Source of the DNA: Chthonomonadales bacterium
GTDB taxonomy: Bacteria > Armatimonadota > Chthonomonadetes > Chthonomonadales > CAJBBX01
NCBI GenBank assembly: GCA_037443035.1
Contig: JBBIPC010000002.1
Location: forward strand, 96,001-160,000
Direction: 5' to 3'
Length of the DNA: 64,000 nt
The notes below the pieces were generated by a model. It was given only the letters and a program-made list of their open reading frames with translations. It did not search any database and was not told the DNA's origin. The position numbers and the translations under genes were made by a program. How positions within the stretch are numbered: position 1 is the first letter of the stretch; every line of letters starts with the position of its first letter. Shown here piece after piece: positions 51,688 through 64,000 of this stretch.

Positions 51688-52971
51688 GTGCTGGTGATAC
51701 AGGACGTTGACGAGACATTGAAGCGGTTGCTTGCGACGGAGCTTGCCAAGCTGCCCGATACGCTTGTCTCGGACCCGCAACAGATCACCTTCGACTCACC
51801 GGCCACAGCCGAGGCGTCACAGCCAGATAAGTGCCGCCTGAACCTCTACTTGCACGACGTTCGCGAGAACCTCCAGTTGCGCGACCAATCGTGGGCGTTG
51901 GTGCGCAAGACGAACGAGGGCATAGCCGGTCGCAAGCGCCCACCCGTTCGTCTCGATCTGTCGTATCTTCTCACCGCCCACATGCCGCAGGACCCAGCAG
52001 CGGAGCACCGGGTCTTGGCGGACGCGCTGGGCATCCTCCTGCGGTTCCCTTACGCTCCTGAGAACTGCCTCGCAGGCTCCCTCGAAGGAAAGGGTCCCGA
52101 GGCAGTACTCATCAACGTGGTACAGCCTGATGATGTAGCGCACGGCGACGCTCACAACCTCTGGCGTGTGCTCGGAGGAAGCTTGCGACCGTCCGTGAGC
52201 ATCGTCGTCACAACCGAGTTCGATCCCTTCGAGACACGCTGGACGCGCGTGGTTCGCGAGGCAGTACTCGGGCTGGGCCAGGGGGTTCCGCCCCATGGAC
52301 CACGCCGACCTTTGGAGATGGGCGGTGTCAGGGTCAGCGCGGCCGGCGTCGTCACCACCGCCGACGGACAGAAGCCCGTGCCGGGCGCCACCGTCTCCGT
52401 AGAAGGACGTGACGAGCGTGCCACTTCGGACAGCCGAGGGTTCTGGTTCATCCTGGACCTGCCACCGGGCCCGAGGGTGCTTCGCGTCAAGAAGCGTGGC
52501 TATCATGAACAAGAGGTTCAGACGGTCTGTCCTCCCCCCGGTCGGCCGGACCAACTGGAACCCATTGTCGTGCGCCTCGAAGAGATGAGCGACGGTCAGC
52601 GCTCCGTGGAGGAACGCGTCTTGACCGAAGCCGCCCTGAACGCGCCGGATCTGGTCGAACTCGATAGGGTCTATACAGTGTCGCTCTCTGGTAGGCTCCG
52701 CTACCCGGACGGGCGACCTGCAGCGTACATCCCTCTCCGCATCGGTCGTCACCATACGACTAGCGATTCCGAGGGTGTCTACACGTTCCACGACCTCCCA
52801 CCTGGTGACCACATCCTTATCGCAGACGTGCCAGGGCGTGGGGAGATCACCGTCAAGACCGAAAACGGCGCTGGCATGCTTCAGCTCGCAGAGGCGGGCG
52901 AGACGAACAGCGCCACCCGAGACGCAAAGCCTGCTAGACGCACTAGGAAGGAGGTCGAGCCACCAGACTGA
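51688..52971 (+). CDS. eCIS Pvc16/DUF4255 cap (tail terminator-like) protein with two carboxypeptidase-regulatory-like beta domains
   Basis: LNLYLHDVREN, PPVRLDLSYLLTA, EHRVL, LWRVLGGSLRPS; then G.V...PVPGATV..SD.RG.....DLPPG twice; first gene before the sheath. Confidence 0.85.
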   Translation: MLVIQDVDETLKRLLATELAKLPDTLVSDPQQITFDSPATAEASQPDKCRLNLYLHDVRENLQLRDQSWALVRKTNEGIAGRKRPPVRLDLSYLLTAHMPQDPAAEHRVLADALGILLRFPYAPENCLAGSLEGKGPEAVLINVVQPDDVAHGDAHNLWRVLGGSLRPSVSIVVTTEFDPFETRWTRVVREAVLGLGQGVPPHGPRRPLEMGGVRVSAAGVVTTADGQKPVPGATVSVEGRDERATSDSRGFWFILDLPPGPRVLRVKKRGYHEQEVQTVCPPPGRPDQLEPIVVRLEEMSDGQRSVEERVLTEAALNAPDLVELDRVYTVSLSGRLRYPDGRPAAYIPLRIGRHHTTSDSEGVYTFHDLPPGDHILIADVPGRGEITVKTENGAGMLQLAEAGETNSATRDAKPARRTRKEVEPPD

Positions 52972-53065
52972 GATGTCCCGCAAGAGTGAAAGTCGCTGCA
53001 AGTAAGATCCGGGATGTGACCCGGCAACCGACCATGCAAATGAGACGAAGACCAAGGAGGTCGAA

Positions 53066-54931
53066 ATGCCTGAATACCTAGCACCAGGTGTGTTCGTAGA
53101 AGAGATCGAGAGCGGCTCCAAGCCCATCGAAGGCGTCGGCACCAACACGGCGGCCTTCATCGGCTACGCGAAGAGCGGCGAGTTCAACAAGCCCACGTTC
53201 ATCTCCAACTGGACCCAGTTCTGCCAGATCTTCGGCGAAGAAGAGAACATCATCGTGAAGGCCCTCTGCGACGAGCTGGGCATGCCTGCGGCAGAGCTTG
53301 TGGCGGCCAAGCGTGCGTCCCGGAAGAGCTGGATGGACTTCGCGATGGCGACCATCACAGCGGCCATTCGCGAGCGTCAGGCCTCAGGGAAGGCCGATCC
53401 ATCCAAGTGCAAGACATGGCCTGAGTTCGTCAAGAAGTATCAGATCCCCCAGGGCAGCCTGCCATACCTGGAGGGAAGCTACCTGGCCCATGCTGTGCGC
53501 GGCTACTATGACAACGGTGGCGGACGTGCTTATATCGTGCGTGTCGCCAGGCCGGATGACATCGCTGCGCTGACCTATGTGCCGGCGGGCGCTGGCGCCC
53601 AGGCTCAGCCGTCGGTGGCACAGGTGGCCGTCGGCGGAATCACGTTCAAGGCACTGAAACCCGGTCCCGAGGGCAACGATATCAAGGTCGAGGTCGAGGC
53701 AGCCGAGGGTGATGAGTTCCGGATCAAGATCACCCATGGCAGCGACACGGAGCAGTTCGGCTATGGTAAGGACAAGCCGCTCACCGTGCAGACGCTGGCC
53801 GATGCGCTGAAACGCTCCAAGCTAGTTCAGGCCGAAGTCACCGCGACTGCCACCAAGCCTGAGGCGAAGGTCTACACGCTGACCGGAGGCGCCGCGTTGG
53901 CCACCACTGGTCCGGGTACAGCGCTAACACCTGCCGGCTCGGCCGTATCCACCAGCCTTGCGAAGGTCTCGCCCAACGATTTTGTCGGTGACGAGGCACA
54001 GCGCACAGGCTTCAACGGTCTCGCAGTGGTGGAAGACATCAACTTCGTGGCGGTTCCCGACTTGATGGCGGGGGTCTTCACCAAGGTCGAGACCCCTGGC
54101 GGCGCCGTCGAGGAGGTGCTGACCATCACCGACCAGCGCAAGCAGGCCATTCTCGATGCTCAGTGCGCCTTGGTTGCCTACTGCGAACGCATGGGCGACC
54201 GGATGGCCATCCTCGATCCCCTTCCGGGCCTCACGCCGCAGGAGATGCGGGATACGACCAACAACACCGCGTATAACTGCGACCACGGCCAGGCAGCTAT
54301 CTACTACCCGTGGATCAAGATCGCCGATCCTACGCGGAAGGGAGCGCAGATGTTCTGTCCTCCTTCGGGACACGTCGCCGGTGTCTGGGCTCGCGTGGGT
54401 GTCGAGCGTGGCGTCCACAAGGCTCCTGCGAACGAGGCGCTGCTGGGCGCGGTGGATCTCGAGGTCAAGGTAACCAAGGGCGAGCAGGAGATCCTCAACC
54501 CCGACGGCATCAACGCCATCCGTGCGTTCCCCGGCACTGGTATCCGAATCTGGGGTGCCCGGACTCTCGCCACAGTTGGCAATCCGTCGTGGAAATACAT
54601 CAACGTCCGGCGTCTGTTCAACTACCTGGAGAAGTCCATGGAGCGCGGGCTGCAGTGGGTCGTCTTCGAACCCAACGACGAGGACCTCTGGGGCCGCGTG
54701 CGGCGCAATCTGTCGGCCTTCCTGTGGACCGAATGGAAAGAGGGCAAGCTGTTCGGATCCGTCCCAGAGGAGGCCTTCTACGTCAAGTGCGACGCTGAGA
54801 CCAACCCGCAGGAGATGATCGACCTGGGCAGGCTGTATGTGGAGATCGGCGTGAACCCGGTCAAGCCCGCCGAGTTCGTCATCATCCGCATCGGCCAGTG
54901 GTCCGGCGGCGGTTCTATCTCCGAGACGTAA
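53066..54931 (+). CDS. Contractile tail sheath protein (eCIS Afp2/3/4-like)
   Basis: MPEYLAPGVFVEE, YYPWI, PPSGHVAG, RGVHKAPANE, IWGARTL, YINVRR, VFEPN, PVKPAEFVIIRI; AAGGAGG RBS. Confidence 0.96.
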   Translation: MPEYLAPGVFVEEIESGSKPIEGVGTNTAAFIGYAKSGEFNKPTFISNWTQFCQIFGEEENIIVKALCDELGMPAAELVAAKRASRKSWMDFAMATITAAIRERQASGKADPSKCKTWPEFVKKYQIPQGSLPYLEGSYLAHAVRGYYDNGGGRAYIVRVARPDDIAALTYVPAGAGAQAQPSVAQVAVGGITFKALKPGPEGNDIKVEVEAAEGDEFRIKITHGSDTEQFGYGKDKPLTVQTLADALKRSKLVQAEVTATATKPEAKVYTLTGGAALATTGPGTALTPAGSAVSTSLAKVSPNDFVGDEAQRTGFNGLAVVEDINFVAVPDLMAGVFTKVETPGGAVEEVLTITDQRKQAILDAQCALVAYCERMGDRMAILDPLPGLTPQEMRDTTNNTAYNCDHGQAAIYYPWIKIADPTRKGAQMFCPPSGHVAGVWARVGVERGVHKAPANEALLGAVDLEVKVTKGEQEILNPDGINAIRAFPGTGIRIWGARTLATVGNPSWKYINVRRLFNYLEKSMERGLQWVVFEPNDEDLWGRVRRNLSAFLWTEWKEGKLFGSVPEEAFYVKCDAETNPQEMIDLGRLYVEIGVNPVKPAEFVIIRIGQWSGGGSISET

Positions 54932-54945
54932 GCAACCACACCTGA

Positions 54946-63641: not shown

Positions 63642-63654
63642 GGGATGTGACAGT

Positions 63655-63984
63655 ATGGCGATTCGCATCAAGCGGCTCCACTGCCGCGTAATGGTGAAAA
63701 CCGGTGGCAAGAGCCGTCCCATCCTCGCCAAGGATGAGAAGCGGCCCACGCCGTCGCTCGCTTTCGCGATGCCGTCAGCCCGGCCACGAACCGAGGGCGC
63801 TGGACAGGAGCCGGCCGTGAGCGCCATCGAGGAAAAGGGTGCCGCAGCCGGCCGGAAGCCGCGAATCGACCCGCGGCGGGTGGATCCCAAGCTCGTCGCC
63901 GACAGGGTCTACGATCTGATGATGAAAGAACTCCACCTTGCTCGCGAGCGAGGCGAGGTGAAGTACGGAGGGATGCGACCATGA
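63655..63984 (+). CDS. Small eCIS-associated protein
   Basis: C-terminal D...VADRVYDLM.KEL.L.RERG helix resembles small conserved proteins of eCIS loci; lies directly after the giant ORF. Confidence 0.65.
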   Translation: MAIRIKRLHCRVMVKTGGKSRPILAKDEKRPTPSLAFAMPSARPRTEGAGQEPAVSAIEEKGAAAGRKPRIDPRRVDPKLVADRVYDLMMKELHLARERGEVKYGGMRP

Positions 63985-64000
63985 GATCAGGCAGTGCCAG
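63981..64000 (+). CDS. Start of the next gene (truncated by window edge)
   Basis: ATGA overlap with the previous stop; GGAGG RBS at about 63967. Confidence 0.45.

Follow-up and report, generated by a model that had tools for sequence, protein, structure and literature searches.

The window considered here, a stretch of 64,000 nucleotides spanning positions 96001-160000 of contig C2 in the genome of a Chthonomonadales bacterium (61 contigs, 3.76 Mb, rated 100% complete), carries at its right-hand end the first genes of an operon for a contractile injection system (CIS). This operon almost certainly encodes an intact CIS resembling subtype IId, resident in an Armatimonadota chromosome. Its structural genes are present, the Afp15-type AAA+ ATPase is missing, a start-less DUF6760 frame with a slippery site and a hairpin lies where the gene for the tail assembly chaperone ends, and a giant DUF4157 protein carries long-range repeats. 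A model in which a IId-like CIS lacking Afp15 loads its cargo in the manner of a phage, with the tube polymerising around a giant, tape-measure-like effector, has about an even chance of being correct. Positions without a prefix are those of the window, and C2 coordinates are contig positions beyond it; G000 denotes the window's own genome, and G001, G002 etc. denote related Armatimonadota genomes. Published statements are taken from the available portions of the cited sources.

The operon comprises 18 genes over 29,678 bp, ends at C2:177365, contains no N and has every frame open, in keeping with the resident system proposed in the preliminary description; its G+C content is 62.8%, compared with 61.7% in its contig. 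That description had listed seven co-oriented parts, a left boundary abutting a divergent housekeeping-type operon, and baseplate and spike genes expected further on. Open reading frame (ORF) and family searches recovered all seven genes at 51688-63984 on the same strand, opening the operon beside a divergent ABC permease/TPR/aminotransferase run, and tube 2, CIS_tube+LysM, VgrG, PAAR, gp25 and baseplate J follow on that strand (Table 1). A Pvc16_N terminator is thus clustered with homologues of the tube (Afp1/5), sheath, Afp7, Afp8, Afp9 and Afp11, the hallmarks of the superfamily of CIS and extracellular CIS (eCIS; Chen 2019, Geller 2021). Beyond the window, Pfam matches include PF06841, PF19266, PF01476, PF05488, PF04965, PF04865, PF09684 and PF13709; among NCBI-type profiles, NF033848, TIGR02243 and TIGR02242 lie above cut-off and NF053767 is weak. 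No sigma-70-type promoter was found in 51200-56200.

The closest solved sheath in a PDB search is the 534-aa chain of 8BKY/9GTP, S. coelicolor Cis2 (475 bits), whereas Pvc2 reaches 164 bits. The baseplate J protein, too, has its best solved match in 9GTP, which represents the baseplate of the S. coelicolor CIS (PMC12237407). These matches place the predicted system next to subtype IId, so that the earlier assignment to an Afp/PVC/Streptomyces type tightens to the Streptomyces/Chloroflexota branch. The system shares with S. coelicolor CIS-Sc (sco4242-4260, IId) and with Roseiflexus/Chloroflexota CIS these sheath and baseplate relations, and with CIS-Sc the Cis16 cap, single sheath, two tubes, Cis7-LysM, VgrG, gp25, a single Cis11, a short Cis12 of the Tail_P2_I type and predicted Ig-like transmembrane (TM) proteins. 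The Tail_P2_I protein matches the Cis12-slot protein of S. clavuligerus at E 3e-21. Unlike CIS-Sc, the window system has no Cis15 ATPase, holds a giant DUF4157 protein within the operon, includes PAAR and a DUF4159 gene in the fibre slot, and has a sheath insertion and an Armatimonadota host. The lineage I systems PVC, Afp and AlgoCIS share the Pvc16 cap, tube, sheath, spike and baseplate, and AlgoCIS also has DUF4157 cargo; they differ in loading cargo through Pvc15/Alg15, in having a separate Afp14 tape measure and in a far lower sheath similarity, at most 164 bits. A sheath phylogeny, as suggested in the preliminary description, was built with Chloroflexota and Streptomyces rows; in this quick tree, which carries only Shimodaira-Hasegawa-like approximate likelihood ratio test (SH-aLRT) support, as do the other trees, and no dbeCIS reference set, the Armatimonadota sheaths form one clade (support 100). 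Their N-terminal insertion of ~76 aa (residues 59-134) is present in 8/8 aligned Armatimonadota sheaths and in 0/5 from Chloroflexota.

The ATPase expected downstream did not materialise: the operon continues without an AAA+ ATPase of the Afp15 type, and the rest of the genome yielded none either, PF22977 (Afp15) giving no match in a whole-genome profile search. When the full-length Afp15 of G002 was compared with G000, only the AAA core of a TPR-AAA protein matched, at 27-30% identity, and an FtsH-like protein matched more weakly. This best, weak match is a 434-aa TPR-AAA fusion at C1:186750-188054. The genome very probably lacks an Afp15 ATPase. Published accounts call the ATPase invariable and needed for activity in S. 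coelicolor (Vladimirov 2023, PMC10020575), count it among eight subunits present in >85% of loci (Chen 2019, PMC6899500) and describe it as required for cargo loading (PROCIS preprint, 10.64898/2026.05.27.728243). Under a strict eCIS definition, in which Afp15 is invariable, the locus is a variant rather than a plain member.

Loading might instead be driven by a non-orthologous AAA+ protein encoded elsewhere, such as the TPR-AAA protein on C1. The genome offers 23 AAA-domain matches, of which 6/23 were inspected, and an ATPase is reported as required in other systems. This explanation appears improbable: the TPR-AAA match is limited to 28-30% identity in the AAA core, without a PF22977 domain, and equally weak AAA matches occur in genomes that have a true Afp15. 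A prophage remnant, an R-type tailocin or a type VI secretion system (T6SS), by comparison, has been largely refuted and retains a negligible probability. A chaperone frameshift, a tape-measure-like gene and a lacking ATPase are phage or tailocin traits, and one screen discards fibre and tape-measure loci without Cis15 as such (PMC12210884). The Pvc16_N cap, CIS_tube initiator, two tubes and DUF4157 point the other way, as does the affinity of sheath and baseplate to S. coelicolor CIS. Family profile searches gave no match to Terminase_6N or VipB/TssC anywhere in the genome (TssJLM and ClpV were not searched as families), which bears out the original call of a CIS rather than a prophage or T6SS. 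No operon ORF matched a capsid, portal or integrase, although no dedicated search for these families was made; no lysis gene was among the family matches of the operon, and at E 0.01 the chaperone had no match among phage records.

The chaperone and DUF6760, initially listed as distinct parts, are on present evidence more probably a single gene pair linked by a frameshift. From 80 loci taken, 76 were scored, three being dropped because the best chaperone match was an upstream ORF and one because it ran off its contig. The DUF6760 frame overlaps the chaperone end in the -1 frame in 76/76, which rules out an assembly error at this junction. An in-frame slippery heptamer lies within the last four codon positions of the chaperone in 69/76 loci, against 32/2,693 genes of the host genome, and within 13 codons in 71/76; in the remaining five loci the G-run lies further upstream and the stop comes later. 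Four loci carry the canonical GGGAAAC, and GGGGGAA has also been reported at actinophage chaperone frameshifts (PMC10885494). In L047, L051, L070 and L095, the chaperone stop lies ~15 codons 3' of the G-run, in the 3' arm of the hairpin, so that stop and slippery site are uncoupled, and L055 has one extra base 3' of the slippery run. In the three dropped loci (L046, L071 and L080), DUF6760 lies further on, which suggests tandem chaperone-like genes.

The window hairpin has a stability of -23.9 kcal/mol, equalled by 6/200 shuffles. Over 72 sequences (the window and 71 distinct junctions, with two lacking an anchor and three duplicates left out), its 9 pairs are 96% paired, three of them with two-sided changes. 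None of 500 shuffles (0/500) matches this pairing, a count that is no probability because the rows are related and the alignment tested is also the one that supplied the structure. Codon constraint supports the predicted hairpin separately: the Val codon at the hairpin is GTA in 67/67, compared with 80/682 Val codons over the operon, and GC 5' of the Tyr codon is kept in 68/71 junctions, across Arg, Gly and Ser. The arrangement recurs on plasmids. Among 10 of 49 plasmid records, DUF6760 follows a G-run or GGGAAAY in the -1 frame in 8/10, including the published Halogeometricum system, and these loci belong to Actinomycetota, Cyanobacteria, Bacillota, Pseudomonadota and haloarchaea; the chaperone/DUF6760 pair with its G-run is also found in plasmid loci of Streptomyces. 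The 2/10 without DUF6760 also lack a slippery run: an orphan chaperone gene of Streptomyces xanthophaeus (L102:3001-3342) and a Pseudanabaena chaperone gene after three tube genes (L103:3007-3330).

These patterns make a programmed -1 frameshift at the chaperone/DUF6760 junction, with a predicted fusion of ~170 aa, highly probable. The competing view, that DUF6760 is an independent small gene started by coupling or from a non-canonical codon, draws on its annotation as its own coding sequence in RefSeq, on the resemblance of the 3' arm of the hairpin to a Shine-Dalgarno sequence, and on an ATG or GTG that overlaps the chaperone stop in 9/76 loci and in 4/8 plasmid loci, an arrangement that also yields the -1 frame. 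This overlap counts against a pure frameshift, and in these loci translational coupling could add free T peptide. As a general explanation, however, an independent start is very improbable. No ATG, GTG or TTG precedes the conserved part of DUF6760 in the window or in 38/76 loci; the overlap codon varies (ATA, GTA, CTA, ATG); and the slippery run persists while alternating between G-runs and canonical GGGAAAC/T. Furthermore, DUF6760 appears homologous to P2 gpE', a known frameshift extension: P2 GpE is matched by 32/50 DUF6760 homologues (best E 6.4e-6), the window copy reaching only E 0.08. A complex prediction for tube 1 with the DUF6760 peptide scored 0.00, gave no verdict and was counted neither way.

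By these comparisons, the chaperone and DUF6760 would form a pair of the phage gpG/gpGT type. Like lambda gpG/gpGT and P2 gpE/gpE+E', the pair lies between a tube gene and a tape-measure-like gene, with a -1 overlap, a slippery G-run, a chaperone family match and a GpE' match of the extension; unlike them, it belongs to a bacterial injection machine and has a strongly conserved 3' hairpin. In phage lambda, G has the tape measure as its binding partner and T the tube protein (PMC5009743). Sco4251, third gene of the S. coelicolor sheath operon, occupies the chaperone slot by position only, and its product has been found in at least one particle preparation.

The giant protein encoded 3' of DUF6760 combines several modules. 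Residues ~107-300 resemble an alpha/beta-hydrolase with a GHSQG motif (Pfam E 1e-4 to 6e-4). They are followed, at residues 330-1300, by a helical tract of ~1,000 aa that is Arg-rich and amphipathic, with a period of 3.65-3.7. F/W pairs at lags 11 and 22 in residues 330-900 exceed 10,000/10,000 shuffles, and the identity autocorrelation peaks at 11/22/33/44, with peaks at 22/40/44/18/4 in residues 700-1300. Tape-measure proteins show periods of 11 and 11-11-18, with seven anchors in the published pattern (PMC3271669). The giant has no match to a tape-measure family in Pfam or PHROG. The DUF4157/eCIS core, with HExxH, lies centrally, at residues 1369-1444 of 2542 in ORF numbering. The stretch that follows it, residues ~1475-1563 (about 60430-60700), is conserved in many loci and is possibly a second docking module; we take it to resemble small stand-alone CIS proteins.

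The C-terminal part of the giant differs between loci, as in polymorphic effectors. Its last 542 residues match 16 cluster representatives, with DUF4157 in 7/15 when the near-identical one is excluded. Among eight giants compared, the C-terminal 450 aa are common to G000 and G017 only, and the giant of G023, whose locus is gapped, also matched in a separate search. A motif G-[ST]..S-D-x-D has G, S, D and D invariant in 14 aligned sequences. Models of this domain reached predicted local distance difference test (pLDDT) values of 86.8 and 90.7; no Foldseek match was obtained at E 0.001, VIA-align returned only common helical arrangements, and neither a PDB profile search nor the protein atlas gave a named family. 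Weak structural rows, such as those for Tas1 (Z 5.9) and SpoT (Z 5.7), stand among helical noise. The C-terminal enzyme is possibly a nucleotidyltransferase. In a Chloroflexota locus, a match to this domain (L074:2974) lies upstream of the CIS cap gene, between DUF4157 matches.

Overall, the giant is very likely cargo, and tape-measure-related DUF4157 effectors have been described before. S. davawensis Tme (PMC11126660) and S. lividans Sle1/Sle2 (PMC13277306) are likewise encoded by the largest ORF (>2,000 aa) and carry DUF4157, a tape-measure-like helical tract and a variable enzymatic C-terminus. Unlike Tme, the window giant has a hydrolase-like N-terminus and no nuclease match. Furthermore, the published description sets the Tme clusters in a clade far from CIS-Sc; the window sheath, by contrast, is CIS-Sc-like.

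The distribution of ATPase and giant was compared across the 21 DUF6760-positive Armatimonadota genomes, a set that probably overlaps in part with the 80 loci and is not independent of them. An Afp15 orthologue occurs in 8/21 (the query G002 and seven at 52-67% identity) and none was found with this query in 12/21; in G013 the match is merely partial and lies on the contig that bears a second sheath. All 10 fully read ATPase-less loci carry amphipathic giants of 1,822-2,583 aa 3' of DUF6760; the other three of the 13 genomes that lack a cognate ATPase are G023, interrupted by an N gap, G021, read in part, and G059, indel-broken in the 7-kb slot. In all six ATPase-positive loci that were fully read, the protein in this slot is no longer than 980 aa, two more loci being cut by contig ends. 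Separately, more distant sheath genes (36-48% identity) in G008, G009, G013 (C14), G054 and G055 point to a second CIS type within the same order.

The locus could also be a decaying or cargo-less relic left after ATPase loss. The system is patchy, with DUF6760 found in 21/401 genomes of the phylum and a sheath match in 13/61 related genomes, and the same-genus genome G001 (96% complete), although it holds the flanking permease, gave no match to the sheath. A relic is nevertheless very unlikely: besides the 18 open frames and the polymorphic giant C-termini, loci that lack the ATPase keep one gene order across four families, and sheath, tube, VgrG and baseplate show 84-98% identity to genus g17. 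The operon adjoins the same ABC permease in three genomes of another genus; because of this synteny and the G001 permease without a sheath, the locus is read as old at its site and patchily kept. The twenty best matches of the chaperone among named genomes are all from Armatimonadota (69-88% identity), including Chthonomonadales, Fimbriimonadales and Capsulimonadaceae; matches beyond these are mostly from Chloroflexota.

In the proposed mechanism, a minority of ribosomes would slip by -1 at G GGG GAA, yielding a short chaperone G and a longer GT. By analogy with lambda, G would coat the amphipathic tract of the giant and hold it extended, a step with about even chances of being right, and the T part of GT would recruit tube subunits. 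Docking would occur through the DUF4157 core, on the spike or on the initiator of the tube, as has been reported for Tme and Sle2 of Streptomyces. Enclosure of the cargo by such chaperone-guided co-assembly is as plausible as not; with the cargo enclosed while the tube assembles, a threading ATPase would be dispensable. Particles would remain in the producer and fire through the two single-pass Ig-like proteins, much as S. coelicolor CIS does via CisA, and the ejected giant would deliver its lipase-like domain together with a swappable C-terminal enzyme. More broadly, and more tentatively, the Armatimonadota IId lineage may have dropped its ATPase and returned to phage-style assembly with the giant as both ruler and payload. 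The same G/GT pair, which has gone unnoticed under the name DUF6760 in systems of Streptomyces, Chloroflexota, cyanobacteria and haloarchaea, would then mark a length-control pathway in systems described as having no tape measure.

Several observations weigh against phage-style loading on the giant. Published work on S. coelicolor and Algoriphagus finds that activity or loading depends on the ATPase. The longest unbroken W/F chain in the giant is four, compared with seven in the published pattern, and outside G000, G017, G021, G023 and G184 the strict W/F period of 11 is not strong. The giant has no predicted TM helix (no Kyte-Doolittle 19-mer >=1.6), and its DUF4157 is central, where that of Tme is N-terminal. 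Phylogenetically, the ATPase-less state occupies two places on the sheath tree, but the tube-2 tree gathers the ATPase-positive loci in a single clade (its rows for G021 and G060, where truncated loci had yielded tube 1 by mistake, were ignored), so the apparent pattern of ATPase and giant amounts to one or two evolutionary events only. Since the ATPase-positive loci are one tube-2 clade, the match may rest on one event and recombination. In addition, loci that have the ATPase and no giant still retain G/GT, which must therefore have another client there.

The most serious competitor assigns the role of ruler to the Pro-rich 1,310-aa protein, which would be the G/GT client in all IId systems, the giant docking separately through DUF4157 without need of the chaperones. 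A long low-complexity gene lies directly 5' of the LysM gene in 39/41 readable loci (375-2,137 aa, median 833, median 12% Pro), a slot that corresponds to the tape-measure slot of P2/Mu-type tails. These proteins end in a conserved D..LA..VY..L..RL..E.ER motif, their profile also matches Nostoc, Burkholderia and Paenibacillus loci, and the gene is present both with and without the ATPase. In the S. clavuligerus plasmid CIS, DUF6760 is followed by a Pro-rich ORF of 1,381 aa whose end is similar (L097:14531-18676, + strand) and which is missing from the gene table of the record. The Pro-rich protein is a better candidate than the giant for a universal ruler. On the other hand, the copy in the window's genome has no amphipathic or W/F periodicity, unlike known tape measures, and a Pro-rich ruler leaves the absence of the ATPase where the giant is present unexplained. 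On balance, this alternative is rather unlikely, though clearly ahead of the others, and co-assembly around the giant is retained as the working model.

The site of action bears on the name of the system. The designation 'eCIS' stands as far as CIS is concerned; 'extracellular' is not established, because the characterised members of subtype IId, in Streptomyces and Roseiflexus, act in the cytoplasm. The 807-aa Ig-like protein has a TM segment in 67/69 homologues and a signal-like N-terminus in 1/69. A weak match links its profile to a 'hydrolase' of a Streptomyces CIS (E 4.5e-8, small set), which may be Sco4256-like, judging from position and name only. The Ig-like TM proteins differ from CIS-Sc in lying downstream, and a profile comparison detected no link between them and the S. 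clavuligerus protein in the CisA slot. By analogy with the Streptomyces system, particles firing at the producer's own inner membrane are slightly favoured. The position after Tail_P2_I is the usual fibre slot (PMC12923769), and the DUF4159 gene there has a weak CIS13-like N-terminus, so that action outside the cell is conceivable.

Table 1. Predicted features of the CIS operon; unprefixed coordinates refer to the window and C2 coordinates to the contig.
Feature	Coordinates	Strand	Evidence or remark
Tail terminator/cap Pvc16 (DUF4255), Pvc16_N and two carboxypeptidase-regulatory-like domains, 427 aa	51688..52971	+	PF14065 E 1e-29, PF13620 E 1e-20
Contractile sheath, 621 aa	53066..54931	+	PF04984, PF17482; S. 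coelicolor Cis2 as top PDB match
Inner tube protein (tube 1, gp19 type), 144 aa	55009..55443	+	PF06841 E 2.8e-38
Tail assembly chaperone, gpG/gpE-like, 117 aa	55462..55815	+	PHROG 508 E 9e-8
Predicted -1 slippery heptamer G GGG GAA	55806..55812	+	directly 5' of chaperone stop
Conserved RNA hairpin, predicted frameshift stimulator	55819..55852	+	starts 6 nt past slippery site
DUF6760 frame without start codon, -1 to chaperone	55800..55973	+	PF20546 E 3.3e-19
Giant eCIS_core/DUF4157 ORF	56013-63641	+	first ATG 56049, giving 2,530 aa
Small conserved protein, 109 aa	63655..63984	+	no family match
Tube 2 (Afp5-like)	C2:159981-160481 (start in window 63981..64000)	+	
Pro-rich protein, 1,310 aa	C2:160573-164505	+	
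CIS_tube+LysM	C2:164551-165201	+	
VgrG	C2:165270-167222	+	
PAAR	C2:167232-167528	+	
gp25	C2:167552-167959	+	
Baseplate J	C2:167969-170101	+	PDB 9GTP match E 1e-127
Tail_P2_I	C2:170114-171265	+	
DUF4159 protein in fibre slot	C2:171275-172444	+	
Two Ig-like single-pass membrane proteins	C2:172668-175091 and C2:175095-177365	+	one hydrophobic segment each

Homologues of the 109-aa protein were found in Armatimonadota loci only; against the profile of the Pro-rich C-terminal motif it scored E 0.36, which is not significant, though the two look alike by eye. Outside the CIS operon, a 1,497-aa ORF at 41419-45912 (+ strand) has propeller repeats after an N-terminal part and no peptidase family match; this N-terminal part presumably resembles a SpoIVB/S55-type peptidase. 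Downstream of the operon, C2:214149-219340 (- strand) holds a hydrogenase/NADH-dehydrogenase-like gene run, judged from first residues only.

In the literature consulted, no report was found of a CIS in Armatimonadota, of a CIS frameshift or of DUF6760, and figure labels or supplements may already note the chaperone. The S. coelicolor CIS has a uniform particle length and, in the available portions of two studies, no recognised tape-measure gene (PMC12237407, PMC10066040). Particle lengths in the literature are 230-268 nm for S. coelicolor, 217 nm for R. castenholzii, 238 nm for C. chliarophilus and 365 nm for D. aquatilis. Altogether, the conserved G/GT pair implies a ruler, for which the giant and the Pro-rich protein are the two named candidates. 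DUF6760 would gain a function, and a programmed frameshift is indicated in chromosomal genes across Bacteria and Archaea. The system adds Armatimonadota as a phylum for which no CIS paper was found. If true, a natural ATPase-free lineage would suggest that catalogues miss such systems, and would reveal an alternative way of loading that could interest engineers of protein delivery.

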